This document shows, in pieces, positions 44,534 to 57,452 of a stretch of DNA of 64,000 nt (positions are counted from its first letter, which is position 1; each line of letters begins with the position of its first letter). The translations under genes and the position numbers were made by a program. The notes under the pieces are model-generated. The model was not told the DNA's origin. It did not search any database and saw only the letters and a list, made by a program, of their open reading frames with translations. This stretch comes from a virus. The stretch lies in the IMG/VR virus record IMGVR_UViG_3300020159_002019, positions 32,001-96,000 of that record, one strand, 5' to 3'.

Positions 44534-45481
44534 ATGGATTATTCACTTATTACAGATTTAGTTGTTTCAATATTTGGAAACATTAAAAAAACTTATCACG
44601 GAAACTCACAAGTAACCGTTGATTGTCCTTTGTGTTCCGCCGATAAAGGTGTTGAATATGATGGGAAAGGAAACCTTGAAATAAACCTTGAACAAGGATT
44701 ATCTCATTGTTGGTCTTGCGAAAGAACACCCGGAACAATTGATGGACTTATTAAAAAGTTCGGAAATAAACCCCAATATAAGACATTTAAAGTTATTGCC
44801 CCTGAATATGATTACCAAATCAATAAAAGAAAATATACTAAAAAAGATAATAACATTACGGAGTTTCCAAAAGAATTTATCCCGTTCTCAACAATAAATA
44901 AAAGAAACTATATCCACCTTCAACCATATAATTACATTATATCGAGAGGTTATACAGATGAATTATTAAAGGAATATAATATAGGGTTTTGTTTAGAAGG
45001 GAAATATAAACAAAGAATAGTAATACCATTATACGATAAGAAAGGTAATATTATTTATTTCTCAACCAGGTCATATACAGGTGCTAAACAAAAATATCTA
45101 AATCCTGATACAGATAAAGATGATTTAATATTTAATGAAAATAGAATTGATTGGGAAAAACCATTATATATTACAGAAGGTGTATTTGATGGATTACCAA
45201 TACCTAACCATTTCTTATTATTAGGGAAATCATTATCGGAGTTTAAATGGAAAACAATATATGATAACGCTAAATCGGATATTGTAATTGCTTTAGATCC
45301 TGACGCTAAAGAACAGACGTATAGAATGTATCAGAAGTTAAATGCTGGTAAATTAAGGAATAAAGTATTTGTATTACAATATACCGATGATAGGGATTTA
45401 GGTAAATTATTTGAAAATAAAAAAGATTTTAACGATACGATATTGAATTACAGATATTTAAGTGAATTTGAAATAATTTAA
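44534..45481 (+). CDS. DNA primase (zinc finger + TOPRIM)
   Basis: CPLC..HCWSC, RIVIP, KYLNP, ITEGVFD, ALDPDA, DLG motifs. Confidence 0.88.
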   Translation: MDYSLITDLVVSIFGNIKKTYHGNSQVTVDCPLCSADKGVEYDGKGNLEINLEQGLSHCWSCERTPGTIDGLIKKFGNKPQYKTFKVIAPEYDYQINKRKYTKKDNNITEFPKEFIPFSTINKRNYIHLQPYNYIISRGYTDELLKEYNIGFCLEGKYKQRIVIPLYDKKGNIIYFSTRSYTGAKQKYLNPDTDKDDLIFNENRIDWEKPLYITEGVFDGLPIPNHFLLLGKSLSEFKWKTIYDNAKSDIVIALDPDAKEQTYRMYQKLNAGKLRNKVFVLQYTDDRDLGKLFENKKDFNDTILNYRYLSEFEII

Positions 45482-45581
45482 TTTAAAAAACATTTGGAAG
45501 TATAAAAAATTATATTACCTTTGTGGTATGAAAAATTAATTACATATTTAATGGTAATTATTTAAAAAAAATAAAAAAAAG

Positions 45582-45612
45582 TTTGACAATTAAAAAAAAA
45601 GTAGTATCTTTG
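45582..45612 (+). promoter_or_regulatory. Bacteroidetes sigmaA-type promoter of tRNA array 1
   Basis: TTTG-N19-TATCTTTG. Confidence 0.75.
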
Positions 45613-45658
45613 TATCACAAATAAGAAAAACATACTATTTATTAGTAAGAAAATATAT

Positions 45659-45731
45659 CGTGGAGTAGTAGCAGTGGTAGCTCGCAAGGCTCATAACCTT
45701 GAGGTCGGTGGTTCGAATCCATCCTCCGCAA
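45659..45731 (+). tRNA. tRNA-fMet(CAT)
   Basis: Cloverleaf with CAAGG-CTCATAA-CCTTG arm and C1:A72 mismatch. Confidence 0.85.
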
Positions 45732-45769
45732 CAATTTAAAAAAAGTAAAACAATTAAAAAAAAAAGATT

Positions 45770-45847
45770 ATGACAACAATTATTAACATATTTGAATTTA
45801 ACGTGATTGAGGATAGAAGCCTCGGTTTGGGATATCTTTGTGTCTAA
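45770..45847 (+). CDS. leader peptide of attenuator 1 (MTTIINIFEFNVIEDRSLGLGYLCV)
   Basis: 25-aa ORF rich in I/F/E/D codons, overlapping the antiterminator strand. Confidence 0.75.
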   Translation: MTTIINIFEFNVIEDRSLGLGYLCV

Positions 45848-45870
45848 TAATGTGTAGTTAGAATGAATTA

Positions 45871-45905
45871 AAAGAAACCCAAACCTAATAAGTTTGGGTT
45901 TTTTT
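45871..45905 (+). terminator. attenuator terminator 1
   Basis: AAACCCAAAC/GTTTGGGTTT stem plus U tract; 5' arm also pairs with GGTTTGGG at 45824-45831. Confidence 0.8.
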
Positions 45906-45930
45906 GTTTTATATTGTTATTTGAAAATAC

Positions 45931-46006
45931 GGTTCATAGGTCAAATGGTTAAGATATCTCCCTGTCACGGAGTATGGAGCGGGTTCGATTCCCGTATGAA
46001 CCGCCA
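45931..46006 (+). tRNA. tRNA-Asp(GTC)
   Basis: CTCC-CTGTCAC-GGAG arm; encoded CCA. Confidence 0.9.
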
Positions 46007-46012
46007 AAATAG

Positions 46013-46089
46013 GGTATCAGGGGCTGCTGGGTGTGGCTACTTGACTGTCACTCAAGAAAAACAGGTGGGTTCGAATCCCATTGGTACCG
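46013..46089 (+). tRNA. tRNA-Asp(GTC), second divergent copy
   Basis: CTTGA-CTGTCAC-TCAAG arm; canonical T arm. Confidence 0.8.
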
Positions 46090-46100
46090 CAAAAATAAAT

Positions 46101-46174
46101 GTTCCGTTGGACAAATTGGTTAAGTCGTTTCCCTTTCAAGGAAAAGATTGCGGGTTCAAATCCCGTACGGAATA
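46101..46174 (+). tRNA. tRNA-Glu(TTC)
   Basis: TTTCC-CTTTCAA-GGAAA arm. Confidence 0.88.
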
Positions 46175-46181
46175 CAAAAAT

Positions 46182-46254
46182 GGGTTTATAGTGAAATTGG
46201 TGATCACGCATCCCTGATAAGGATGTATTATAGGTTCAAATCCTATTAGACCTA
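46182..46254 (+). tRNA. tRNA-Ile(GAT)
   Basis: CATCC-CTGATAA-GGATG arm. Confidence 0.88.
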
Positions 46255-46260
46255 CAATAT

Positions 46261-46333
46261 GGTGCAGTGGCAGATAAGGTTATTGCGGCGGACTGAAAAT
46301 CCGTAGGAGTCGGATCGTTACCGACCTGCACCA
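46261..46333 (+). tRNA. tRNA-Phe(GAA)
   Basis: GCGGA-CTGAAAA-TCCGT arm; variant T loop ATCGTTA. Confidence 0.85.
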
Positions 46334-46342
46334 CAATAATAT

Positions 46343-46416
46343 ACTACCATAGCTCAATTGGTGAGAGCAGGATGCTTATACCATCAAGGTTGTCGGTTCA
46401 AATCCGGTTGGTAGTA
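46343..46416 (+). tRNA. tRNA-Ile(TAT)
   Basis: GATG-CTTATAC-CATC arm; canonical D and T arms. Confidence 0.82.
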
Positions 46417-46421
46417 CAAAT

Positions 46422-46492
46422 GGGATAAAAGCACATAAGGATGTGCAGACCCTAAACAGGGTAAGGATTGGGTTCGAATCCCAGATATTCCA
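46422..46492 (+). tRNA. tRNA-like gene with aberrant anticodon arm (undetermined)
   Basis: Acceptor, D and T arms present; anticodon arm ACCCT-AAAC-AGGGT lacks a 7-nt loop. Confidence 0.6.
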
Positions 46493-46545
46493 CAAAAAAA
46501 TTAAAAAAAGTTTGGAAATAATAAAAAAAGGAGTATCTTTGTAGT

Positions 46546-47403
46546 ATGGCAAAAATAGAAACATTAAAAGCAAAATTCCCTAATATAACCGAACAAACAT
46601 TTATTCGTTTATTTGAGGGTGACAAGACATCTACTAAAAAGTATGCTGAATTTTTACTTTCCGCTTGGAATAGAAAAGGGACAAATTATGGTGGTTTAAG
46701 GGGTGTTGATGACTATATTAAATTGGTTGAGAATTTTGAGAAATTAACCCCTTATATTGATAATAAGGATATATACTCTTATGGAGATATTCAATCAATA
46801 GTTGGTGTTGTTAAAATAGCTGAAGCCGAAAAAAATGAAAAATCTTTTGATAAAGATGAACACATTTCAGTTATTGAAGAAACTGAAGATTATATCTTTT
46901 TGATACCTAAAACACACGTTGGTTCATTAAAATATGGTTCTAATACTAAATGGTGCACAGCGGCATCAACAAGTCCTGGAACTTTTAAATCATATATTGA
47001 TAGAGGTTTTTTAGCTTATTTAGTTGATAAGAAAAATAAAAAGACGAATAATCAAAATAAATTGGCTTTTTATTTTACAAATAAAGAAAACTTACTTACA
47101 CAAGTAATCCAAATCTTTAATCAATTAGATTCACTTGTAAATGAAAACCAAGTAATACAGAGTGGTTGGGATATTATGTTATTGAGTAATCTTATAACTA
47201 AATTGAGGGTTTTCTTATTTGAGTTTAAGGAGAAAGAAAAAGTTAGGGTTGAAGTATCTAAAACAATTCAACAATTGAATCAAATCAATTACGATAACTT
47301 CTTTAATGCTTTAAATACGTTAAAGATAAATCCTGAGAATGTTGAAGAATTGAAAAACGCTTTAGGGTTAGTTAAAACTTCAATGAAAAAAATCAAAGTA
47401 TGA
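46546..47403 (+). CDS. hypothetical protein, YGxxxKWCT family
   Basis: KYGSNTKWCTA motif; sigmaA-type promoter at 46511-46541 directly upstream. Confidence 0.65.
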   Translation: MAKIETLKAKFPNITEQTFIRLFEGDKTSTKKYAEFLLSAWNRKGTNYGGLRGVDDYIKLVENFEKLTPYIDNKDIYSYGDIQSIVGVVKIAEAEKNEKSFDKDEHISVIEETEDYIFLIPKTHVGSLKYGSNTKWCTAASTSPGTFKSYIDRGFLAYLVDKKNKKTNNQNKLAFYFTNKENLLTQVIQIFNQLDSLVNENQVIQSGWDIMLLSNLITKLRVFLFEFKEKEKVRVEVSKTIQQLNQINYDNFFNALNTLKINPENVEELKNALGLVKTSMKKIKV

Positions 47404-47750
47404 GGAGTGTAAAACAAATCAAAAAGTTAAGATATACTAATGATTGGGTGTCAAATGTTGATGATTCAAATATAACTTATCGTCTTTTTACTTATAATGG
47501 TTTAACTTGGAATGTTATTTTAACTAACCGACAAGAATTAGGTGGTTGGACAATAAGGTTATGTAATAATGATGGTGATGAATTATACATTTTTAATTCA
47601 GGTGTGAATAGAATGTCCATATCAATAAATGACGATTTAATTTACGAATTAGATGGTTGGTATTATGAAAATATAACTGAATTGAAGAATAGGTTAGAAA
47701 ACGATTTAATCGTATTATTAAGGAAATATGAGGAGTATATCAAAAATTAG
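47400..47750 (+). CDS. hypothetical protein
   Basis: Coupled ORF. Confidence 0.55.
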   Translation: MRSVKQIKKLRYTNDWVSNVDDSNITYRLFTYNGLTWNVILTNRQELGGWTIRLCNNDGDELYIFNSGVNRMSISINDDLIYELDGWYYENITELKNRLENDLIVLLRKYEEYIKN

Positions 47751-48060
47751 GGTAAGTGTAAAACAAGATTTTCAAGAATGGTTGGAAAAAACTACCATTA
47801 GTAGATGGATGCCAAGACATAGAATAATATGTAATGATGGGTTTTCTATGTCAGTTCAGGGTGGTGAGTTTACATATTCAAACCCAAGACAATTTGGTAG
47901 TAGTTTTACTGAAATGGAGATTGGGTTTCCTTCTGAGTATGAAGAATTGATTAGTAGTTATTCTGACTCTAATGAATATACTCAAACTGTTTATCCATAT
48001 GTCCCAGTAAGTTTAATTATTGAAGTGATTGAAAAACACGGAGGAATAAAAAAAGATTAG
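47728..48060 (+). CDS. hypothetical phage protein
   Basis: ICNDGFSMSVQG..YSNPR..EIGFPS..VYPYVP. Confidence 0.65.
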   Translation: MRSISKIRVSVKQDFQEWLEKTTISRWMPRHRIICNDGFSMSVQGGEFTYSNPRQFGSSFTEMEIGFPSEYEELISSYSDSNEYTQTVYPYVPVSLIIEVIEKHGGIKKD

Positions 48061-48077
48061 AAAAAAATAAAAAAAGA

Positions 48078-48108
48078 TTTGACAAGTTAAAAAAAAATGT
48101 TATCTTTG
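48078..48108 (+). promoter_or_regulatory. Bacteroidetes sigmaA-type promoter of tRNA array 2
   Basis: TTTG-N19-TATCTTTG. Confidence 0.75.
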
Positions 48109-48187
48109 TATAACAAATGGGATATGAAAATATTTTTTAGATTTCCTTGACAAAAACAAAAAAACAAACTATTTATAAATTAAAGAT

Positions 48188-48298
48188 ATGAAAAACACGA
48201 ATAAAAATATGACTATGGTTGTGAAAGCAACGGCAAAAGGTGGGAATAGAAATACCACACTTGGTTTAGGGCGTGTTATGTCTTTAATGGATAGATAA
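48188..48298 (+). CDS. leader peptide of attenuator 2 (MKNTNKNMTMVVKATAKGGNRNTTLGLGRVMSLMDR)
   Basis: 36-aa ORF; the first 24 codons encode only M/K/N/T/V/A/G/R. Confidence 0.8.
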   Translation: MKNTNKNMTMVVKATAKGGNRNTTLGLGRVMSLMDR

Positions 48299-48322
48299 TA
48301 CAATAATATAAAAAGATATATT

Positions 48323-48359
48323 AAAAACCCTGAACCATAAAAAAGTTCAGGGTTTTTTT
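48323..48359 (+). terminator. attenuator terminator 2
   Basis: AAAAACCCTGAAC/GTTCAGGGTTTTT stem; 5' arm also pairs with TGGTTTAGGG at 48262-48271. Confidence 0.8.
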
Positions 48360-48367
48360 ATTTATAA

Positions 48368-48439
48368 TCCAGATTAGTTTAATTGGGAAAACACGTCTCT
48401 TGTAAAGATGAAAAGTTGGTTCGAATCCGACATTTGGAT
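48368..48439 (+). tRNA. tRNA-Thr(TGT)
   Basis: CGTCT-CTTGTAA-AGATG arm. Confidence 0.85.
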
Positions 48440-48545
48440 CAAAGAAAATAGTAAAAAATTAATTAAAAATATGAAACGAAAACAGTAGGGTGTATGATCA
48501 ATTAGGAATAGGTTGCATACACTAAAAATTAAAAAAAATGTATAT

Positions 48546-48633
48546 GCACCTATGGCTTAATTGGTAGAGCAACCGGCTTTTAACCGGTGGGGTAGACGAA
48601 AGTCCGTTGAAGGTTCGAGTCCTTCTGGGTGCA
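48546..48633 (+). tRNA. tRNA-Lys(TTT) with long variable arm
   Basis: ACCGG-CTTTTAA-CCGGT arm; extra GAC-GAAA-GTC hairpin. Confidence 0.85.
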
Positions 48634-48639
48634 CAATTT

Positions 48640-48712
48640 ACTTTCGTAGCTTAATTGGTAAAGAAACTAACTCTTAATTAGTGTGATGTGAGTTCGAGTC
48701 TCACTGGAAGTA
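48640..48712 (+). tRNA. tRNA-Lys(CTT)
   Basis: ACTAA-CTCTTAA-TTAGT arm. Confidence 0.82.
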
Positions 48713-48739
48713 CTAAATGTTATTTGAAATATTATAAAT

Positions 48740-48812
48740 TGGGATGTAACTCAGAGGCTAGAGTGTTTGCCTGTTAAGCAAAAAGTCGAGATATCGTAAT
48801 TCTCCATCCCAG
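48740..48812 (+). tRNA. tRNA-Asn(GTT)
   Basis: TTTGC-CTGTTAA-GCAAA arm; variant T loop. Confidence 0.8.
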
Positions 48813-48873
48813 CAAAAATTGAAAGATAAACGTATGAAACAAAGGAATGTAGTGGTTTATTAAGTAAATATAT

Positions 48874-48945
48874 GGCTCTATCGTTTAACGCATAAGACAT
48901 TTCTCTTCTAAAGAAAGAATAGGGGTTGGATTCCCTTTAGAGCCA
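48874..48945 (+). tRNA. tRNA-Arg(TCT)
   Basis: TTTCT-CTTCTAA-AGAAA arm. Confidence 0.8.
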
Positions 48946-48952
48946 CAGCAAT

Positions 48953-48977
48953 CCAAGTTCGATTCTTGGTGGGAGTA
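48953..48977 (+). pseudogene. tRNA 3' fragment (T arm + acceptor 3' strand)
   Basis: CCAAG-TTCGATT-CTTGG-TGGGAGT-A with no 5' half. Confidence 0.6.
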
Positions 48978-48986
48978 CAAAAAAAT

Positions 48987-49057
48987 ACCTTCTTAGTTAA
49001 ATGGGAGAATATCTGTTTTACATACAGAAGATAACTGTTCGATTCAGTTAGGGGGTA
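48987..49057 (+). tRNA. tRNA-Val(TAC)
   Basis: TCTGT-TTTACAT-ACAGA arm. Confidence 0.82.
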
Positions 49058-49109
49058 CAAAAAAAGATTTGATTTTTTAAAAAAAATTATTATCTTTAAA
49101 AAACAATAT

Positions 49110-49182
49110 GGGGTTATGGTATAGTTGGCGAACACAGTAGCTTTGCAAGCTTCAGTCCCGAGTTCAAATCTCGGTAGCTCCA
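49110..49182 (+). tRNA. tRNA-Ala(TGC)
   Basis: TTTGCAA anticodon loop; G3:U70 pair. Confidence 0.88.
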
Positions 49183-49185
49183 CAA

Positions 49186-49255
49186 TGTTTCACTTAGAAT
49201 AAAAACAAACGCTTAATAGCAACAAACTCTTAATTTGTCAATTATTAGTGAAACA
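49186..49255 (+). ncRNA. Y-RNA-like stem element A with a Lys(CTT) anticodon-stem-loop mimic
   Basis: TGTTTCACT/AGTGAAACA closing stem, CACTTAGAATAA motif, internal ACAAA-CTCTTAA-TTTGT. Confidence 0.55.
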
Positions 49256-49258
49256 AAT

Positions 49259-49329
49259 GTCGATATAGTTAAATGGGATAACACCCCTCTCATCAAGGGA
49301 AGTTATTGGTTCGAATCCAGTTATCGATA
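49259..49329 (+). tRNA. tRNA-Met(CAT), elongator (Ile2 not excluded)
   Basis: CCCT-CTCATCA-AGGG arm; paired 1:72. Confidence 0.78.
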
Positions 49330-49340
49330 CCCTGAAATAA

Positions 49341-49417
49341 TATTTCACTTAGAATAAAAAACTATTTGAATTTATCCTCCAATGGAGGGTGTATTTAATC
49401 CAATTAATAGTGAAATA
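49341..49417 (+). ncRNA. Y-RNA-like stem element B
   Basis: TATTTCACT/AGTGAAATA closing stem with the same CACTTAGAATAAAAA and CAATTAxTAGTGAAA ends as element A. Confidence 0.55.
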
Positions 49418-49420
49418 AAT

Positions 49421-49493
49421 GCGGGTGTAGCTCAATTGGTAGAGCGCGACCTTGCCAAGGTCGAGGCTGTGGGATCGTACCCCATCACCCGCT
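49421..49493 (+). tRNA. tRNA-Gly(GCC)
   Basis: CGACC-TTGCCAA-GGTCG arm. Confidence 0.9.
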
Positions 49494-49496
49494 CAT

Positions 49497-49703
49497 TGAG
49501 TAAGAGGTACTCAGTAGTCTTTAATCCAAGACTCATTTAACAATGGATTCGCTTAAATCGGACAGCGAAAATGCCGGTTCTTAGGAATAAGGAGCGAAGC
49601 ACACCTCCCCTTCGTAGTGTGACTATTTTTAATGGGGATGCCCTTCAGGTTTTTGGAAAGAAGAAAACCGAAATGACTACTCACCTAAATCTCAAGGTGG
49701 GGT
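49497..49703 (+). ncRNA. unidentified ~200-nt structured RNA with two potential pseudoknots
   Basis: Series of hairpins with loop-to-downstream complementarity; GC richer than flanks; lies between two Gly tRNAs. Confidence 0.55.
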
Positions 49704-49709
49704 AAACAA

Positions 49710-49781
49710 GCGAGTATCGTATAATGGCTATTATACCACGCTTCCAACGTGGGGATGTGATTTCGATTATCACTACTCGCT
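49710..49781 (+). tRNA. tRNA-Gly(TCC)
   Basis: CCACG-CTTCCAA-CGTGG arm. Confidence 0.85.
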
Positions 49782-49794
49782 CCGGACGTTTTAG

Positions 49795-49832
49795 AAATCA
49801 GTAATATTTTTTTGGTATTACTGATTTTTTTT
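49795..49832 (+). terminator. terminator ending tRNA array 2 (overlaps the yqeY promoter)
   Basis: AAATCAGTAATA/TATTACTGATTT stem plus T tract; TACCTTTG at 49835. Confidence 0.7.
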
Positions 49833-49858
49833 ATTACCTTTGTAGAAATAATAAAATT

Positions 49859-50308
49859 ATGACACTTAAAGAACAAATTCAAAAAGACTTCATCACGGCT
49901 ATGAAAAATAAAGATGAATGGACTAAATCCGCTCTAAGTGGGTTAAAATCAAAGATTACTGAAGCTGAAAAAGTTAATGGAACAGAATTATCAGACGCTG
50001 ATATTCTTAAACTAATTAATAAAGGTATTAAACAAAGGGAAGAATCTGCTACTATATATAGTGAAGCAGGTCGTCCGGAATTAGCTGCGAAAGAATTACT
50101 TGAACTTAATGTTTTAATGGATTATATGCCAGCTCAAATGACTGATGAGGAAATTGAAACGGCTGTAAGGGAAATTATTGTTGGATTACCTACAATGACA
50201 AACGCAAATGCCTTGTCAGGAAAAACTATGGGTGAATTCAATAAAAAGTATCAAGGAATGGCTGATTCTAAAAGAGTTTCAGAAATTATAAAAAAAGTTG
50301 TATCATAA
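49859..50308 (+). CDS. yqeY: GatB/YqeY domain protein
   Basis: LKEQIQKDFITAMKNKD..KQREESATIYSEAGRPELA..YMPAQM. Confidence 0.9.
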   Translation: MTLKEQIQKDFITAMKNKDEWTKSALSGLKSKITEAEKVNGTELSDADILKLINKGIKQREESATIYSEAGRPELAAKELLELNVLMDYMPAQMTDEEIETAVREIIVGLPTMTNANALSGKTMGEFNKKYQGMADSKRVSEIIKKVVS

Positions 50309-50352
50309 TTTGACTTTCAATAAACAATAAACTATAATTAAAAAACAAAAAT

Positions 50353-50463
50353 GGGGGGTAATTTTTTAGTGGATTGAAAATACCACTTAGAATAACTCTA
50401 AACTATATTGGTAAAAGTTTGACTAATAATCAAATATAGAAGGTTCGAACCCTTCACCCCCCG
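50353..50463 (+). ncRNA. tRNA-like RNA with expanded anticodon loop (YrlA-like, or intron-containing tRNA-Leu(TAG))
   Basis: GGGGGGT/ACCCCCC acceptor, GAAGG-TTCGAAC-CCTTC T arm, variable hairpin, TACCA-[CTTAGAATAACTCTAAACTATAT]-TGGTA. Confidence 0.6.
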
Positions 50464-50493
50464 CAATTATTAACAATATAAAACATAAAGTAT

Positions 50494-52332
50494 ATGACAG
50501 AATTAGTAAAAGAAAAAATGAAGTTATCTAACACATTAGATACATTACAATTTTTAAGAACCGCTAAAGGTGCTTCAGATGAAAAAATTCATTTGGCTTT
50601 AGATAAAGCCTATGCTGAAACAACATCTAATGGAGTTGAGGAAATGTTATATAGAATTATGTTTCATATTGGAGATATTTCAAGAAAGCATAATATCTTT
50701 AAAGAATTTGAAATCAACTCAGAAGTGGGTGGGGCTCAAGAAAGAAAGATATTTAGATCTTGTGTAAGATGGATGCAAAAGAACACCCCAGAGTTCTTGC
50801 ATAACAACTTAAAGTTAGTAGTTGAATATACTTCATACGAAACTTTAATGTATTACCAAGTAAGCACAAACAGATATTTGGGTAATGTTATGGGTGTTGA
50901 AAAACTATTCATTGACAACCAATATTTGTTCCCTTTCTTAAAGTCTGAGATTGAATCAGGTGTAAACTTGAACTTAATCGCAAGACACTTACCTAAATAT
51001 GCTACAGGTAAGCAAAGAACAACTAAAAAGACTTTAGTTGGTAAAAGGGGAAGAACTGAATTCAGTTGGACATTACCGAAAGGTAAGACTTGGGTTAAAA
51101 TCAATGGAAACCTTGTAAATGGTGATAAAATCACGGTTAAGCATGGTGATGTTGCTGAATACCCAAGAGAAAAGAAATCTGAGTCTTTAACAAGACAAAG
51201 TTTCTTAAACAAGTGGATTAAGGATTTCTGTGATTATATGAAATGGACAATCGCTGATTACAAAGCATTTAAGGGTAAGCAGAATACTGCTGAACAAAAA
51301 ATGTCAAGTGGTTCAGTAATGTCTATGACAGAAGATCAATTTAATGGTTTCTTGGATTCTTTGACTGCGGGACAAAGAAAAAGGGTTGTAAAATCATTGG
51401 GTAATCCTAAATGGGGACAGCTAACTAAATGGTATAAGGCTTGGGAAGATGACCAATCTAACTTAGCTGAAAAAATTAGAAAAGCTACCACACCTGCTGA
51501 AAAAGCCGCTTTGATGAAAGATTTCAAAGTTAAAACAACAGGGGATCAAACAATTGATTTGTTGGCTGAAATGCTTGGTAAGGGTTTAAATGCTCAACAA
51601 GTAAATAACAACTATCAATCAATGATTGAGAGAATGAACATTAAACATTCAGTATTTCCAATTATTGACGGTTCGGGTTCTATGGATAGTACTTTTGACC
51701 ATAACGGTGTAGGAATATCTAACAGACAAGTAGCATACGCAATGGCAATTGCATTTACTACAATGAATCCAAACCCAAGATTTAGAAATACTTATGGTTG
51801 GTTCTCAAACGACTTTAAGGTTTTTGGTAGGTCTGAGTATGGTGATACCTATATATCTATGTTTAAGAATGTGGATAAGTATGTAAGTCATACAAAGACT
51901 TTTACTGAGAATTACAGATTACTTATGGAGACAGATCCAAAAGAAATTACATCTACAAATATGTTTGCTTCGGTAGAATATTTTGTAAATCTTGTGAAAA
52001 CAGGAAGATGTACTATGGAAGAATTACCTGAAACATTACTTTATCTTACAGATAATGAGTATAATTCAGGTAAATCACCAAAAGAAGCGGTTACTTTAGC
52101 CAATTCAATTGGATGGAGACCAAAGTTAATTTTTTGGGGTATTACCACAATGACTCATTCTATTAAGGAAGAGTTAAAATATACTCCGAATGGTTTATTC
52201 ATCGGTGGTTTCAACGAAAGTTGTTTATCACAAATCTTGGATGGAATCTCAAAAGATTCAATAAATCCAGAAGATGAATTGTGGGCTATTTATAACGATA
52301 TTCGTTATAGTGTAATTAAAGTAGGTGAATAA
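50494..52332 (+). CDS. Ro60/TROVE-like (DUF2828-type) protein with C-terminal vWA domain
   Basis: Helical N-terminal region with GAQERKIFR; MIDAS motif IIDGSGSM; STNM, LTDNEY, LIFWG. Confidence 0.7.
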   Translation: MTELVKEKMKLSNTLDTLQFLRTAKGASDEKIHLALDKAYAETTSNGVEEMLYRIMFHIGDISRKHNIFKEFEINSEVGGAQERKIFRSCVRWMQKNTPEFLHNNLKLVVEYTSYETLMYYQVSTNRYLGNVMGVEKLFIDNQYLFPFLKSEIESGVNLNLIARHLPKYATGKQRTTKKTLVGKRGRTEFSWTLPKGKTWVKINGNLVNGDKITVKHGDVAEYPREKKSESLTRQSFLNKWIKDFCDYMKWTIADYKAFKGKQNTAEQKMSSGSVMSMTEDQFNGFLDSLTAGQRKRVVKSLGNPKWGQLTKWYKAWEDDQSNLAEKIRKATTPAEKAALMKDFKVKTTGDQTIDLLAEMLGKGLNAQQVNNNYQSMIERMNIKHSVFPIIDGSGSMDSTFDHNGVGISNRQVAYAMAIAFTTMNPNPRFRNTYGWFSNDFKVFGRSEYGDTYISMFKNVDKYVSHTKTFTENYRLLMETDPKEITSTNMFASVEYFVNLVKTGRCTMEELPETLLYLTDNEYNSGKSPKEAVTLANSIGWRPKLIFWGITTMTHSIKEELKYTPNGLFIGGFNESCLSQILDGISKDSINPEDELWAIYNDIRYSVIKVGE

Positions 52333-52342
52333 CCTACTTTTT

Positions 52343-52561
52343 TTATGCCTTTATTTTAACCACAACCTCACCTTCATTATTAGTGGTTAGATAATATTCT
52401 TTTTTGTTTGTAAATCCATATTTTTTAGATATGTTTGATTCTATCCTTTTTTTGGTTGATGGTGTGTTAGCAAATGTAATATGTGGTTGAACATATTCAT
52501 CTTTGAATTGTTCCATTTTATTTACCGTTTCTTTAATAATTCTCTTAATTAAATTTTTCAT
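52343..52561 (-). CDS. small virion-type protein
   Basis: MKNLIKRIIKE N-terminal motif; TATTTAT upstream on the minus strand. Confidence 0.55.
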   Translation of the reverse strand: MKNLIKRIIKETVNKMEQFKDEYVQPHITFANTPSTKKRIESNISKKYGFTNKKEYYLTTNNEGEVVVKIKA

Positions 52562-52628
52562 ATAAATAAATATTTGGTTTTATGAAAACTATTATTTATA
52601 TTTGTATTGTAATTAAAAAATAAAATAT

Positions 52629-53294
52629 ATGTATAATAACAAAACAGATTTTAACAAATTCGCAACATCGCATATGGGTATATCGTCTTTATACCTCGAT
52701 GATCTTCAATCGTCAATGACACCTCACATCTTAGAAGAAAGACCGACAAGAGCAAATCTTATGTCAGTATTTGATAGATTGATGCAAGATAGGATTATTT
52801 GGGTTGCCGGTGCGGTTGATGAGGGTATGTCACAAGTTATTCAAGCGCAATTGATTTACTTGTCAAACTCAGACCCTAAGAAAGAAATTACGATGCACAT
52901 TGACACTCCTGGTGGTTCAGTAAAGGCTGGATTATCAATCGTGGATGTAATGGATTATGTTAAACCTGACATTAGAACAATCAATACAGGTATGGCGGCA
53001 TCAATGGGTTCAGTATTGTTAGGCGCTGGAACCAAAGGAAAAAGAATGTCTTTAAGATTTTCACAAACAATGCTACACCAATCTTCAGGTGGTGTGAGAG
53101 GAAATATTCAGGATGCTAGGATAACAATGATTGAATGGGAAAAAATAAATGATTTGTTATTTAATTTGTTAGGTGGGTATTGTGGTAAGGATGCTATCCA
53201 AGTAAAAGAAGATGCTTCTCGTGATTTATGGTTAAGTTCTGAAGAAGCGTTGGCTTATGGGATAATTGACGAAATAATCAAACCAAAAAAATAA
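52629..53294 (+). CDS. clpP: ATP-dependent Clp protease proteolytic subunit
   Basis: DRIIW, TPGGSV, GMAASMG (Ser), MLHQ (His), RDLWL (Asp), YGIID. Confidence 0.95.
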   Translation: MYNNKTDFNKFATSHMGISSLYLDDLQSSMTPHILEERPTRANLMSVFDRLMQDRIIWVAGAVDEGMSQVIQAQLIYLSNSDPKKEITMHIDTPGGSVKAGLSIVDVMDYVKPDIRTINTGMAASMGSVLLGAGTKGKRMSLRFSQTMLHQSSGGVRGNIQDARITMIEWEKINDLLFNLLGGYCGKDAIQVKEDASRDLWLSSEEALAYGIIDEIIKPKK

Positions 53295-53305
53295 TTAAAA
53301 AAAAG

Positions 53306-53336
53306 TTTGACAATTAGAAAAAAAATATTATCTTTG
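53306..53336 (+). promoter_or_regulatory. Bacteroidetes sigmaA-type promoter of tRNA array 3
   Basis: TTTG-N19-TATCTTTG. Confidence 0.75.
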
Positions 53337-53411
53337 TATTATAAATGGGATGTGAAAAATATTTTTCACATTTCCATAACAAAAACAAAAAAACAAACTA
53401 TTTAATATAAA

Positions 53412-53546
53412 ATGAAAACATTAATTAACATATCATTATCGTCATTGTATCTATTACAGTCGCTATGCCAAAGTTGTGTTTCGGTATTACCGTTACATCA
53501 GTATTGGTTAGTGCTAGGATTTAGTGCGGTGGGTATGTTAAGTTGA
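53412..53546 (+). CDS. leader peptide of attenuator 3 (MKTLINISLSSLYLLQSLCQSCVSVLPLHQYWLVLGFSAVGMLS)
   Basis: 44-aa ORF; 24 of codons 8-33 encode S/L/Y/Q/C/P/H/W. Confidence 0.8.
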   Translation: MKTLINISLSSLYLLQSLCQSCVSVLPLHQYWLVLGFSAVGMLS

Positions 53547-53568
53547 TAAGACAATAATATACCTTATT

Positions 53569-53610
53569 AAACCCCCTAAATCCGTATAAATGAGATTTAG
53601 GGGGTTTTTT
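53569..53610 (+). terminator. attenuator terminator 3
   Basis: AAACCCCCTAAATC/GATTTAGGGGGTTT stem plus U tract; 5' arm also pairs with GGATTTAG at 53517-53524. Confidence 0.8.
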
Positions 53611-53644
53611 ATTTTAGTTATTTGACATATTGTATTAGAAATAT

Positions 53645-53717
53645 CAGGGTGTATATCAATTGGGAGATTACTCCATTTGGATTGGAGAGGTTGTAGGTTC
53701 GAGTCCTATCACCCTGA
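53645..53717 (+). tRNA. tRNA-Pro(TGG)
   Basis: CTCCA-TTTGGAT-TGGAG arm. Confidence 0.85.
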
Positions 53718-53724
53718 CAAATAT

Positions 53725-53795
53725 TCCCCTTTCGTCTAACGGCAGGACAGATGGTTTTGAGCTATCGAATCGAGGTTCGAATCCTTGAGGGGGAA
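53725..53795 (+). tRNA. tRNA-Gln(TTG)
   Basis: GATGG-TTTTGAG-CTATC arm; U1:A72. Confidence 0.85.
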
Positions 53796-53847
53796 CCGGT
53801 TTGGGTTTTACACTTTTAAACTTACGAGATAAGGAAAAAGTGAAATT

Positions 53848-53918
53848 GGGATGATGCCGAGAGTGGTCAGACGGTCTGTAAAACCGAACTGCATAGTGTT
53901 TGAGTCACTTCCATCCCA
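53848..53918 (+). tRNA. tRNA-Tyr(GTA), atypical (short variable region)
   Basis: CGGT-CTGTAAA-ACCG arm; divergent D and T arms. Confidence 0.65.
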
Positions 53919-53928
53919 CAAAATAAAC

Positions 53929-54002
53929 GTAAGTGTAGTGAACAATGGCTAACACGTTCGGTTCCAACCCGAAAGATGTGGGTTCGACCCCTACCACTTG
54001 CG
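53929..54002 (+). tRNA. tRNA-Trp(CCA)
   Basis: TTCGG-TTCCAAC-CCGAA arm; G73. Confidence 0.85.
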
Positions 54003-54009
54003 CAAATAA

Positions 54010-54104
54010 GGAGAGGTGCTAGAGATGGATTATTGGGCTAGTCTTGAAAACTAGAGATCGTCAGTGATGGGGATCCGTGGGTTCGAATCCCACTCTCTCC
54101 TCCA
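54010..54104 (+). tRNA. tRNA-Ser(TGA)
   Basis: CTAGT-CTTGAAA-ACTAG arm, long variable arm, encoded CCA. Confidence 0.88.
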
Positions 54105-54109
54105 AATAT

Positions 54110-54188
54110 GGGTTTGTTGGTGTTAATTGGATGAGCATTTACGATTGTGGCTCGTAAGGTGAGGGGTTCGAATCCCCCATAAACCCCA
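54110..54188 (+). tRNA. tRNA-His(GTG)
   Basis: TACGA-TTGTGGC-TCGTA arm; G-1:C73. Confidence 0.85.
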
Positions 54189-54268
54189 AAAGTAAGGAAT
54201 TAGGTTATTATACGTAGGCTCCGAGTGTAATAACTGAAATTTAGATCCTTATGAACTTCGGTCCGCAG

Positions 54269-54356
54269 GGAGAATTGACAGAGTGGTAATGTATCGGTTT
54301 GCTAATCCGTAGTCTATGTAAAAGTAGCGGGGGCTCGAATCCCTCATTCTCCGCCA
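54269..54356 (+). tRNA. tRNA-Ser(GCT)
   Basis: TTGCTAA loop, long variable arm, encoded CCA. Confidence 0.82.
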
Positions 54357-54365
54357 AAAATAAAT

Positions 54366-54454
54366 GCTTCTGTGGCGAAATTGGTAGCACGCGATGGACT
54401 TAAAATCCATTGGGAAATAACAGTACCGTGTCGGTTCGATTCCGACCAGAAGTA
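54366..54454 (+). tRNA. tRNA-Leu(TAA)
   Basis: ATGGA-CTTAAAA-TCCAT arm, long variable arm. Confidence 0.88.
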
Positions 54455-54461
54455 CAAACAT

Positions 54462-54547
54462 ACCCCAATGTTGGAATGTAGACAACCTAGTTTTAGAAAC
54501 TAGTGTGAAGTAATAGTAGCGTCTGGGTTCAAATCCCAGTTGGGGTA
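54462..54547 (+). tRNA. tRNA-Leu(TAG)
   Basis: CTAGT-TTTAGAA-ACTAG arm. Confidence 0.82.
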
Positions 54548-54553
54548 CAAAAT

Positions 54554-54641
54554 GGGAATGTGGTGTGAGTGGTTGAAACCGGGGGTCTGCAAAACCCCAA
54601 AAACGAAAGTTTTCACGTCAGTTCGAATCTGATCATTCCCT
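54554..54641 (+). tRNA. tRNA-Cys(GCA) with long variable arm
   Basis: GGGGT-CTGCAAA-ACCCC arm; U73; extra AAAAC-GAAA-GTTTT hairpin. Confidence 0.82.
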
Positions 54642-54650
54642 CAATTACAT

Positions 54651-54723
54651 GACCCCATAGTTCAATGGATTAGAATACTTGAATACGGATCAGGAGATGA
54701 GAGTTCAAATCTTTCTGGGGTTA
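54651..54723 (+). tRNA. tRNA-Arg(ACG)
   Basis: CTTGA-ATACGGA-TCAGG arm. Confidence 0.8.
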
Positions 54724-54726
54724 CAA

Positions 54727-54755
54727 AAAGAAAACCATTTTTATATGGTTTTTTT
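54727..54755 (+). terminator. terminator ending tRNA array 3
   Basis: AAAACCAT/ATGGTTTT stem plus T tract. Confidence 0.65.
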
Positions 54756-54779
54756 TATGCCATTACATATTTATTACAT

Positions 54780-57452
54780 ATGATTATTATTGAAGGAAAA
54801 TTAGAAGATTTATCTAAGAAATATATACCGAAGTTTAATAGGGATTCATTTACTGAAGGTTTAACCCCTGAATCTGTTATTGAGCATTTATATGTTTCAG
54901 ATCCATCACCAACAAAGAAATACTTTGAGTGGATGATTAAAGAATGTTTGGGATTGATAGAACGTAATTATGTTATTAACAATGAAAAAATAGCTAAACT
55001 TGTAACGGATATCCAAGAATTTGATAGAAATATTGATAAACTTAGTCAGGATTTTTTAGATTATAATAAAGAAGAAATTGGTGAAATTGCGTATAAGTTT
55101 TTAAATGGTAAGGCTTTAAAAGATATTGGTACATATAATTACGATATTTTAAGAAAAATAATACCTTCATTGGTAGAATATAAGACAGAAAGTCAAAGAA
55201 GAAGATTGGCTAAAGAAGGTGCTAAAATTATATTTCAAGATGAAAAATATGATGTTTATGAAATAGATACTTATGACGCTTCTTGTTTTTATGGTCAAGG
55301 TTCTAAATGGTGTACAACTTATAAACAAAGTGATTCACATTTTAAATCATATGGTACTGGTAGGAATAAATTATTATATGTTATTAGTAAAACTAAGACA
55401 AAAGAAACTGATCCTCAATTTTATAAGATTGCTATAAATATAAGGTATGTTGATGAACAAATAACATTTTGGGATGCTCCTGATAATAGTTTTAATGGTT
55501 GGAAATATTTTAGGGAACAAGATCCAAATATTTTAACTTTTTTGATTTCTTATATTAAAGAAAAGAATCCTGAAGGATATCTTAAAATGATACCTGAAAA
55601 CTATTTAATAACGATTAAACAAGAAGAAGAAGGTTTAAGTGATTTAAATATTATTTCGGTTTTAGATGTTGATAAATCTAGTGATTGGTTAAGTCATAAA
55701 TATGGGTTAAATGGTGTGGATACTATTATTAAAAAATTGGATATATTACAAGGTAATGTCAGTAATTTTTTAGGTGATTATTTTACCAGTGATGAAAAAG
55801 AGTATTTAATCATAAAAAGAAGTGAGAAATTAGAACCAAGAGGTTTGTCGTGGAAAGATTTAGTTAAAAGTTATCACCAATTAGCAATTACTCTAGATAG
55901 CTATCAACCAAGTTGGTTTATTGATAATTTTTTAGGTGGGGATAAAAACAAAGCGTTAGAAATTGGGACAAAAGAACCGATAGTACTATATTGGTTGGCT
56001 AGAGGTAGTGTTAATATAAAGGATTTGGGTGATTTATATGGAGCTGAAAAACTTGTTAAATATATTACTAAAAGTAAAGTTAAAGTTATTTTTGGGTTAA
56101 GTGATATATTGGGTGGTTTATTTACAAATGAAACTCCAAAGAAAAGAAAGGAGTTATATGAAATTGCTTATAAGTATGATGGCAAAAAAAGGAATATTGA
56201 ATTAGTCGATTATTTGTCTAGACGTATGGGTAAAGAGGGATTCATTGCGTCATTTAATAAAGGTGATGGATATGGAATTGAACCTGATTCATATGGAAGA
56301 GCATTTTTATATGTTAAAAATAATAACCCTGATTTAATAAGTAATGTATTTAACATTGAGGATATTAGTAAAATCTTCAAGTCAAACGAAAAAGCGTTTA
56401 CTTATTTATTAAAAAATTATGATGAATTTACACGTAATTTAGATATTAGTGATTTAACTGAAATGTTTAGTGGTGATGTTCCTGATAGTATATATGGTAA
56501 ATATATGAGTGATTGGGAAAAGAGGAATGTTGCGTCAATATATAGAATGAAAAATGGTTCTGAAAAACTATTTGATTTTGTTCTTAAAAAGTTTTCTTTT
56601 AAAAAGTTAGCCGATATCATCGGATATGATGGAGTATTTCAATTATTTTCTATTGTTAAGTTTAAAAAAGGTATAAACTATATGATTGAAAATAAGGTTG
56701 GCGATATCGCTATTGATGATATAAAAATAAAAGATGGTAAGGTGGTATTGGTTGTTAATGATAGAACGGATTATGCGTTTTTATTTGATGATGAAGATTT
56801 GGCTAAAACTATATTGGGTGAAGATATGGATTGGGAACCGTATAACGATACTATTTATAATTGGTATGATCAAGTATGGGATTGTATGGTACCAAAATCA
56901 ATTGAACTGGTTAAGTCTTGGATTAAAAGTAATATAACAGATTATGAGAATGATGAAGGTGAAAAAATTGATTTAGGTGATACATATTTAAATGAAATAG
57001 ATGATGATGATTTGGGTAAAATAATAGATGAGTACGATGAATTTAGGGATTTAAAAAATGAGATGAGTTGGGCTTATGATAATGGTTATAATTCTGTTGC
57101 TCAAAGTGATATTATTAGTAAAACACAAGATCAATTAGAAGAATATTTAGGTAGTTATATAGGGTATGAACCAGTTAAAAAGAATGGTCGTAGATATAAT
57201 AAAGAAACAGGTAATTCTGAATCATACGAATATACAGCATATGAATACTTATATAATGTGGGTGATGGTTTATATGATATATTATATGATTATGCAACTA
57301 CTAATTGGGGTCATTCGGTTGATTACAACACATATTTTAGCACTTTATTAAAGGATTCTGACCCTAAAAAGTTATATATTGATACTGAGGCTTATCCAGA
57401 CGATAAAGAAATTTGTGAGTATTTTAATGATGATTTACCGGAAAGAATATGA
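54780..57452 (+). CDS. large hypothetical protein, YGxxxKWCT family
   Basis: DPSPTKKYFEWM and FYGQGSKWCTT motifs; acidic C-terminal region. Confidence 0.65.
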   Translation: MIIIEGKLEDLSKKYIPKFNRDSFTEGLTPESVIEHLYVSDPSPTKKYFEWMIKECLGLIERNYVINNEKIAKLVTDIQEFDRNIDKLSQDFLDYNKEEIGEIAYKFLNGKALKDIGTYNYDILRKIIPSLVEYKTESQRRRLAKEGAKIIFQDEKYDVYEIDTYDASCFYGQGSKWCTTYKQSDSHFKSYGTGRNKLLYVISKTKTKETDPQFYKIAINIRYVDEQITFWDAPDNSFNGWKYFREQDPNILTFLISYIKEKNPEGYLKMIPENYLITIKQEEEGLSDLNIISVLDVDKSSDWLSHKYGLNGVDTIIKKLDILQGNVSNFLGDYFTSDEKEYLIIKRSEKLEPRGLSWKDLVKSYHQLAITLDSYQPSWFIDNFLGGDKNKALEIGTKEPIVLYWLARGSVNIKDLGDLYGAEKLVKYITKSKVKVIFGLSDILGGLFTNETPKKRKELYEIAYKYDGKKRNIELVDYLSRRMGKEGFIASFNKGDGYGIEPDSYGRAFLYVKNNNPDLISNVFNIEDISKIFKSNEKAFTYLLKNYDEFTRNLDISDLTEMFSGDVPDSIYGKYMSDWEKRNVASIYRMKNGSEKLFDFVLKKFSFKKLADIIGYDGVFQLFSIVKFKKGINYMIENKVGDIAIDDIKIKDGKVVLVVNDRTDYAFLFDDEDLAKTILGEDMDWEPYNDTIYNWYDQVWDCMVPKSIELVKSWIKSNITDYENDEGEKIDLGDTYLNEIDDDDLGKIIDEYDEFRDLKNEMSWAYDNGYNSVAQSDIISKTQDQLEEYLGSYIGYEPVKKNGRRYNKETGNSESYEYTAYEYLYNVGDGLYDILYDYATTNWGHSVDYNTYFSTLLKDSDPKKLYIDTEAYPDDKEICEYFNDDLPERI

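Follow-up and report, generated by a model that had tools for sequence, protein, structure and literature searches.

Three tRNA arrays on a phage contig

The window (the whole stretch of 64,000 nucleotides analyzed here) is part of a contig of 109,290 bp with 29% GC, which has the appearance of a complete or near-complete phage genome. On this contig, 27 tRNA genes are confidently called, grouped into three arrays that are all on the same strand. Jointly, arrays 1, 2, and 3 span all 20 amino acids. Here, we focus on array 2, whose ten tRNAs serve eight amino acids (for the Met-cat gene, an elongator Met and a lysidine-type Ile tRNA were not distinguished), and on the short region in front of it. 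The features of this region and of its two sister loci are collected in Table 1.

Table 1. Features of the array 2 locus and of the loci of arrays 1 and 3, in window coordinates (regulatory roles are putative)
Feature	Position	Strand	Details	Basis
Promoter-like site	48078-48108	+	TTTG, spacer, TAnnTTTG	pattern search
Optional 5'-UTR hairpin	48119-48147	+		sequence, alignment
Conserved 16-nt UTR motif	48160-48175	+	before all three array leaders	
Leader ORF 2	48188-48298	+	36 codons; stop TAA 48296-48298	
Putative sensor stretch	48188-48259	+	codons 1-24, array-2 amino acids only	
Putative antiterminator 5' arm	48262-48271	+	inside leader ORF 2, codons 25-28	
Intrinsic terminator	48326-48359	+	hairpin 48326-48354 overlapping seven-T run 48353-48359	
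tRNA array 2	48368-49783	+	Thr-tgt, Lys-ttt, Lys-ctt, Asn-gtt, Arg-tct, Val-tac, Ala-tgc, Met-cat, Gly-gcc, Gly-tcc	ARAGORN, Rfam
Internal promoter-like site	49068-49098	+	between tRNA-Val and tRNA-Ala; kept in L001	
Initiator-like Met tRNA	45659-45732	+	upstream of leader 1	
Putative sister attenuator 1	45770-45906	+	leader ORF 45770-45847, arm 45824-45831, terminator from 45875	
tRNAs of array 1		+	Asp, Asp, Glu, Ile, Phe, Ile (behind sister attenuator 1)	
Putative sister attenuator 3	53412-53612	+	leader ORF 53412-53546, arm 53517-53524, terminator from 53570	
tRNAs of array 3		+	Pro, Gln, (Tyr-like), Trp, Ser, His, Ser, Leu, Leu, Cys, Arg(acg) (behind sister attenuator 3)	

Besides the 27 genes, two more tRNA-like elements fall below threshold. 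One of them, a Tyr-gta tRNA-like element at 53848-53919 (+) between Gln and Trp, is reported by ARAGORN only at relaxed settings and not by Rfam. The membership of Tyr in array 3, which the earlier note had taken for granted, is thus weaker than assumed. At the matching position the relative L002 has a confident tRNA-Tyr; the window copy may have degenerated or be of an atypical form. At the end of array 1, a tRNA-like element at 46422-46493 (+) is likewise sub-threshold (Rfam 23.8 bits; ARAGORN at relaxed settings only); its anticodon loop is abnormally short by eye, and the element is kept in L001 and L002. Two of the called genes, tRNA-Lys(ttt) at 48546-48634 and tRNA-Cys(gca) at 54554-54642 (both +), measure 89 nt each and carry a long extra arm that is unusual for their isotypes; at the same positions, the Lys gene of L001 has 75 nt and the Cys gene of L002 has 72 nt. 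The Met tRNA of array 2 has a C at position 37. The spacer between both Gly tRNAs (49495-49709, +) is 215 nt long, of similar length in L001 and L002, and apparently richer in G+C than its surroundings; it gave no tRNA or Rfam match, and its fold is not unusual (z -1.7).

Several protein-coding genes accompany the arrays. Directly 3' of array 2 lies a gene for a YqeY/GatB-like "tRNA amidotransferase" protein (49859-50308, +; phrog_1460), and a 221-aa ORF that is ClpP-like by eye only is found directly 5' of the array-3 promoter (52629-53294, +). Between arrays 2 and 3, a 612-aa protein is encoded (50494-52332, +) that matches the phage "RNA-binding protein" family phrog_850 and, distantly in a protein search, vWA-domain/RNA-binding proteins of Campylobacter phages. 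From what such annotations usually cover, and without a Pfam comparison, we presume that it may be Ro60/TROVE-like. Given its position among tRNAs and tRNA-like elements, it may have a Y-RNA-like partner; none was found by Rfam. In other phages, inserted ORFs interrupt the arrays or separate the initiator-like tRNA from the leader: L006 (reverse strand, between Met tRNA and leader 1, ~230 aa), L003 (5002-5964), and L275 (2654-3254). These are probably homing-endonuclease-type insertions, and they show the mosaic nature of the arrays.

Promoter-like sites and the 5'-UTR

Strict matches to the pattern TTTG-spacer-TAnnTTTG, the Bacteroidota consensus of Bacteroides and Flavobacterium promoters, number four on the + strand, and three of these stand before the three arrays. 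The site ahead of array 2 is promoter-like and may drive both leader 2 and array 2, an assignment resting on the pattern match without expression data. Leader ORF 2 starts 80 nt beyond its -7 box. In the intervening UTR, the 16-nt motif is a shared element of the three loci, as its perfect matches in the window number exactly three, one per array (0.13 expected), and it also occurs in the more distant L082 lineage. The UTR hairpin is optional: a similar one is present in the array-3 UTR, and the L136 and L003 orthologs have none.

Between the leader ORF and tRNA-Thr (48299-48367), no promoter-like site was found, and the T run of the terminator ends 8 nt before tRNA-Thr. Because of this short gap and the lack of a promoter-like site, expression of array 2 from the site at 48078-48108 needs read-through of the terminator. 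A possible bypass for the end of the array had been pointed out in the earlier note, namely a near-consensus internal promoter at 49068-49098. The site is real and conserved in one relative; its -7 box has an A in place of the consensus G. Through it, the last four tRNAs (Ala, Met, Gly, and Gly) might be expressed independently. Four other lineages have a canonical -7 box located 3' of the terminator and ahead of the array. This is suggestive of basal or dual control, so that gating by the attenuator may be only partial.

A leader that spells out the amino acids of its array

The earlier note had claimed that the first 24 codons of leader ORF 2 are drawn only from M, K, N, T, V, A, G, and R. 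This is borne out, and the set equals the eight amino acids of array 2 as called by ARAGORN and Rfam. All eight are present: M (3), K (4), N (5), T (5), V (2), A (2), G (2), and R (1). The match extends to the codons, as the only Arg codon of the stretch is AGA and its Gly codons are GGT and GGG, again as claimed. By strict wobble, the anticodons of array 2 decode 20/23 sensor codons vs 5/12 codons of the tail; the remaining three sensor codons (ACT, ACC, and GTT) need extended wobble. Codons 25-36 include L, S, D, and a CGT Arg, none of which is served by array 2.

How likely such a match is by chance can be calculated in several ways. With amino-acid frequencies taken from 103 long ORFs, the array-2 set has a frequency of 0.443 in the proteome, and the chance that 23 further codons all fall in the set is 7e-9. 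When the nucleotides of the stretch itself are shuffled (300,000 times), none of the shuffles reaches 23/23 and the maximum is 21; the corresponding per-codon probability of 0.536 gives a chance of ~6e-7. The remaining two frames over the sensor stretch score only 9/24 each. Compared with other ORFs, leader 2 also stands apart: among the 396 ORFs of the genome that start with ATG and have at least 25 codons, the runner-up scores 17/24, and a composition no better matched than that of random short ORFs, which the earlier note had named as grounds for abandoning the idea, can be discounted. In a whole-genome six-frame scan for the array-2 set, the sensor segment comes first with a statistic of 17.1 vs 12.4 for the second.

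Most sensor amino acids are present as scattered single codons rather than runs, and leader 2 may for that reason have a low sensitivity to mild shortage. Leader 3 is enriched in rare codons read by its own array (57/20,000); for leader 2 this enrichment is marginal (1343/20,000).

A terminator and a competing helix

The terminator hairpin alone has a predicted energy of -13.6 kcal/mol, and it is contained in the fold of the full region (-38.3 kcal/mol, z -3.8). Its 5' half (48328-48337) doubles as the 3' arm of a competing helix. When the 3' half of the terminator is left out, the minimum free energy (MFE) structure pairs 48262-48271 with 48328-48337 (-23.2 kcal/mol, z -4.4). The duplex of arm and terminator amounts to -14.4 kcal/mol, which is equalled by 1/1000 shuffles. 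Over 48255-48362, the terminator state (-25.5 kcal/mol) and the enforced antiterminator state (-23.8 kcal/mol) are nearly iso-energetic, as would be expected of a kinetic switch.

The earlier note had described the antiterminator as bipartite, and its two parts fared differently. The outer helix (10 bp, one G.U) is the one just described, recovered in the MFE structure without the terminator 3' half. For the inner helix (48277-48285 with 48312-48320), the complementarity is as written (9 bp, one G.U), but the MFE structure has two local hairpins instead, and the helix is not conserved in L136. The bipartite form is thus not supported.

The position of the ribosome deserves some attention here. 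At the stop codon, its footprint would cover ~48281-48311 and leave the arm at 48262-48271 uncovered, and by energy alone the outer helix would still be possible (-12.5 kcal/mol). The OFF state must therefore rest on kinetics and sterics. Neither an anti-antiterminator (region 1:2) nor a pause hairpin was found at leader 2; a small hairpin at ~48237-48262 adjoins the arm without sequestering it. In the absence of an anti-antiterminator, an untranslated transcript is predicted to read through and not to super-attenuate.

The loci of arrays 1 and 3, and related phages

The layout of array 2 is repeated at arrays 1 and 3, where each arm is complementary to its own terminator. The composition match of leader 1 alone is weak (9/12, z 1.3), whereas the array-3 leader is the second-best segment genome-wide for its set in the six-frame scan. 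The arm/terminator duplex of array 3 performs weakly in the shuffling test (92/1000 shuffles), and folding without the terminator 3' half recovers the arm proposed in the earlier note. The peptide encoded by leader 3 is hydrophobic enough for a small membrane peptide. Counting the more distant units introduced below, the arm/terminator topology is present in five units beyond array 2, namely those of arrays 1 and 3, L082, and G001 b and d.

In three related phages of IMG/VR, a neighboring protein has 86-94% identity. Leader ORF 2 and its start are kept in L001, L136, and L340, with a heavily rewritten middle. Between the window, L001, and L136, the sensor stretch has 12 amino-acid changes in 24 codons, 9 of which stay in the set; the three that leave it are found at codon 20 of L001 and codons 23-24 of L136. 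The proportion 9/12 is only suggestive, as about half of all single-nucleotide changes stay in the set anyway. At the nucleotide level, the sensor has diverged by 12.5% vs 2-5% for the flanking UTR and terminator. Judged from these alignments, and keeping the small numbers in mind, the pattern appears to be turnover within a fixed alphabet and not peptide conservation.

Two relatives also hint at agreement at the level of isoacceptors. L003 has an extra Leu-aag tRNA and is alone in having a CTT codon in the leader-3 sensor stretch; leader 3 of L001 contains a CGC codon, matching the Arg-acg of array 3, in a phage where CGN makes up ~6% of the Arg codons. A natural deletion is seen in L002 (9200-9340, set against 48078-49420 of the window), which lacks leader, terminator, and all eight tRNAs Thr through Met as a single block and has the promoter joined directly to the Gly-Gly pair of array 2.

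Independent lineages and the covariation of leaders with arrays

Pattern scans with the A-rich UTR motif are unspecific; among the matches listed were L082, L227, and, by chance, L229 (G001). In L082, 11/12 of the central leader residues come from L, R, I, E, and Q, and the array that follows consists of Leu, Arg, Arg, Leu, Ile(tat), Glu, Gln, and Gln. The leader codons AGA, TTA, ATA, GAA, and CAA match the anticodons. The G001 contig holds two leader/array units: one leader draws 18/20 residues from P, N, D, G, T, and A and precedes exactly those tRNAs, and in the second leader, every one of the twelve amino acids served by its 13-tRNA array is found, among them C, W, and H. G001 also has a third array, a small one with a promoter and no leader. 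L227 is a weak case, as its leader appears unmatched by its four visible tRNAs; two more Ala tRNAs are seen in its relative L332, where the match remains weak (z 0.2). Even with L227 included, comparing seven leaders with seven arrays (whole ORFs) makes the true assignment the single best of 5040 permutations.

For a sample that is blind to composition, we searched with a 12-nt element of array 3 (53621-53632) and its preceding T run. This search gave at least 19 loci (at least 15 distinct sequences) with a tRNA array starting within 250 nt. An ORF of 23-57 aa, counted from its first ATG in frame, is present at each listed locus and ends 48-104 nt 5' of the element, and in 15/15 distinct listed sequences a G+C-rich hairpin and a T run lie between the two (by inspection, without folding). 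With tRNAs up to 1 kb apart assigned to one array and the longest ORF taken as the leader, the sample yields 13 non-redundant pairs, for which 0/200,000 permutations reach the observed summed in-set z-score or coverage. The same is true (0/200,000) for all 19 pairs, i.e., the three of the window and 16 non-redundant ones from other phage contigs, 13/16 of which were chosen blind to leader composition. For 11 leaders, their own array ranks first of 19; leader 2 of the window does so with a z of 4.9 (rank 1/19). Weak matches are seen for leader 1 of the window, L313, L332, L341, and L368. We thus observe that the units recur across phages and that leader and array co-vary.

L340 illustrates this covariation within a single homologous leader. 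At the DNA level, it is homologous to attenuator 2, with the start and the terminator stem kept. The rewritten middle lists I, W, Q, F, S, C, Y, P, and H, in keeping with its own array, which differs from array 2 (Pro, Ile, Lys, Cys, Trp, Asn, Tyr, Gln, Met, Val, Phe, His, and Ser).

The element used for the search is itself a curious feature. It reads TTTGACATATTG (usually with TTC before and G after), lies between the attenuator T run and the first tRNA, and is also present in L281, L302, L309, L313, L325, L332, L340, L341, L348, L357, L358, L368, L373, L381, and L389. In many otherwise diverged phage arrays it typically ends 7-14 nt ahead of the mature 5' end of the tRNA; it is absent from array 2. 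In four lineages a canonical -7 box is found just upstream, and the element could thus mark a transcript start, an operator, or a processing site.

Other searches were less productive. A pattern based on tRNA-Pro was dropped since the genes are too diverged. In the cultured Flavobacterium phage immuto (MW353175), Ser-Glu-Gln tRNAs lie behind a 51-aa ORF without a terminator, and we do not count it as an example. A DNA search for relatives of the tRNA region among 50,697 phage records gave only generic tRNA matches and no cultured relative.

A proposed ribosome-mediated attenuator and its alternatives

We interpret the region in front of array 2 as a ribosome-mediated (leader-peptide) transcription attenuator, which controls the tRNA operon of the phage in response to how well the tRNAs of that operon are supplied. 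Sequence and comparative data support this reading; in the absence of expression data, we give it a probability of roughly three in four. Transcription would begin at the promoter-like site 48078-48108, and a ribosome would load on the 36-codon leader while RNA polymerase proceeds; translation of leader ORF 2 is itself inferred. As long as the Thr, Lys, Asn, Arg(AGA), Val, Ala, Met, and Gly codons are decoded fast, the ribosome would traverse the 3' part of the ORF and unwind or occlude the arm region (from 48262) along with the structures as far as the stop codon. With the arm blocked, the hairpin 48326-48354 would form, and transcription would stop 8 nt before tRNA-Thr. If charged tRNA is scarce for any sensor codon, the ribosome is predicted to stall within 48188 to ~48250, leaving the arm free to pair with the 5' half of the terminator once this has been made, and the polymerase would pass the terminator and transcribe the ten tRNA genes. 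Both the direction in which the switch works and the dependence of read-through on stalling are inferences. The OFF state would require passage of the ribosome through the arm in the decision window (i.e., while the outcome is being settled), together with steric hindrance of a helix that encloses the ribosome. The outcome would be a negative feedback on tRNA supply with multi-input OR logic.

The physiological trigger, too, is inferred. Possible ones are the loss of host tRNAs in infection, tRNA-cleaving defense nucleases, and the codon-usage mismatch of a phage with 29% GC. Nuclease-based defenses and phage tRNA escape have been documented (PMC10264068, PMC11555353, PMC11464382), and tRNA-cleaving defenses are a plausible trigger.

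A different signal could act on the same attenuator hardware. All that the leader ORF can register is how fast codons are decoded, and this varies with charging and not only with the amount of tRNA; the leader might therefore respond to general translation stress or amino-acid starvation, or serve mainly as an infection-stage timer. The scattered single codons suit a gross failure of translation more than a fine titration, and the tRNA array of Anabaena is induced by general translational stress (PMC8421152, PMC10272220). Neither the tracking of arrays by the alphabets of their own leaders over 19 pairs nor the agreement at the isoacceptor level (AGA vs CGY) would be required under such a signal, however, and we consider it unlikely, if still worth keeping in mind. 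We have stronger reservations about the idea that the ORF and terminator are an independent mini-gene (for a small peptide or sRNA), with tRNAs made from other promoters and a match unrelated to read-through control. At array 2, the terminator-to-tRNA-Thr gap of 8 nt and the lack of promoter-like sites in 48299-48367 speak against it, even though canonical -7 boxes 3' of the terminator in four related lineages, the internal promoter-like site, and a hydrophobic leader 3 with the potential of a small membrane peptide could be cited in its favor. Furthermore, the complementarity between arm and terminator is significant and recurs with different sequences in the paralogs, and homologs rewrite the middle of the peptide and keep only its alphabet, which argues against a conserved peptide function. 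On balance, a mini-gene seems quite improbable.

Finally, the stretch is 49% A and the array-2 set holds the A-rich codon families Lys, Asn, and Thr, such that one might suspect a chance or compositional artifact of an A-rich intergenic region. The shuffles of identical composition (0/300,000), the other frames (9/24), and the next ORF (17/24) all contradict this, and the sets of other lineages, with a quite different codon make-up, are matched equally well. This explanation is effectively refuted already, and hardly any weight remains on it.

Extending the preferred reading, an attenuator that senses the tRNAs of its own array, to other phages is more speculative. It is possible, at somewhat less than even odds in our judgment, that phages (probably of Bacteroidota) carry widespread modular tRNA homeostats, in which each leader lists the amino acids and isoacceptor codons of its own array. 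Each leader would work as a multi-input OR gate: depletion of any cognate tRNA, be it through anticodon nucleases of the host or through a decay of host tRNAs induced by the phage, would then cause exactly that set to be resupplied. This would amount to an inducible counter-defense and a self-tuning system of decoding, and to the first tRNA genes under ribosome-mediated attenuation.

Comparison with known systems

Leader-peptide attenuation is a textbook mechanism that, to our knowledge, has been described for amino-acid operons and for a single synthetase but not for tRNA genes. Attenuator-like leaders were reportedly discussed near E. coli tRNA-Phe genes in the 1980s. A literature search among 8.4 million papers gave no paper joining tRNA arrays or clusters with attenuators or leader peptides. 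If the proposed control is true, the ribosome itself would feedback-control tRNA supply, one tRNA set at a time. It would also bear on the old question of why phages carry tRNAs. Synthesis on demand speaks for a compensation of tRNA losses; codon supplementation alone would have no need for a switch of this kind. In addition, the leaders would be compact natural sensors for defined tRNA pools, useful in synthetic biology.

The closest precedents are the attenuators of amino-acid operons. Classical leaders are those of trp, his, leu, and phe; more than one amino acid is represented in the ilvGMEDA leader (Ile/Leu/Val codons) and the thr leader (Thr/Ile codons). As in these operons, the phage unit has a promoter-proximal short ORF with regulatory codons, an intrinsic terminator, and an antiterminator that would depend on the position of the ribosome, and more than one amino acid would be sensed. 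Unlike them, it is phage-borne and would regulate tRNAs instead of biosynthetic enzymes. Its leader lists eight amino acids, mostly as scattered codons, and no pairing of the region-1/anti-antiterminator type was found. The pheST attenuator comes nearer in its target, as the level of Phe-tRNA controls phenylalanyl-tRNA synthetase through the pheM leader. Both cases concern leader-peptide attenuation of a component of the translation apparatus, with feedback via the level of charged tRNA; pheST has a synthetase as its target and a single amino acid as its signal, whereas the phage unit would output the very tRNA species that it senses.

T-box riboswitches are comparable in that a terminator/antiterminator switch answers to tRNA status and controls translation-related genes. 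In contrast to the phage unit, they bind uncharged tRNA directly via a specifier codon and need no ribosome. A cmscan of 45400-55000 (E up to 1) gave no T-box hit and no other Rfam leader family above threshold; the only leader-family hits were two sub-threshold Thr_leader matches over the terminators (23-27 bits vs a 55-bit cut-off).

In its output, the phage unit is most readily compared with the trn operon of Anabaena sp. PCC 7120, a 26-gene tRNA array that is induced by translational stress (PMC8421152). The words leader, attenuator, and terminator are absent from that paper, and control is exerted at the promoter, where the RHH repressor TrcR binds direct repeats (PMC10272220). In both systems, an accessory tRNA array would be kept off and switched on when translation is impaired; the Anabaena operon does so without amino-acid-specific sensing, whereas the phage leader would tie the response to the amino acids of its own array.
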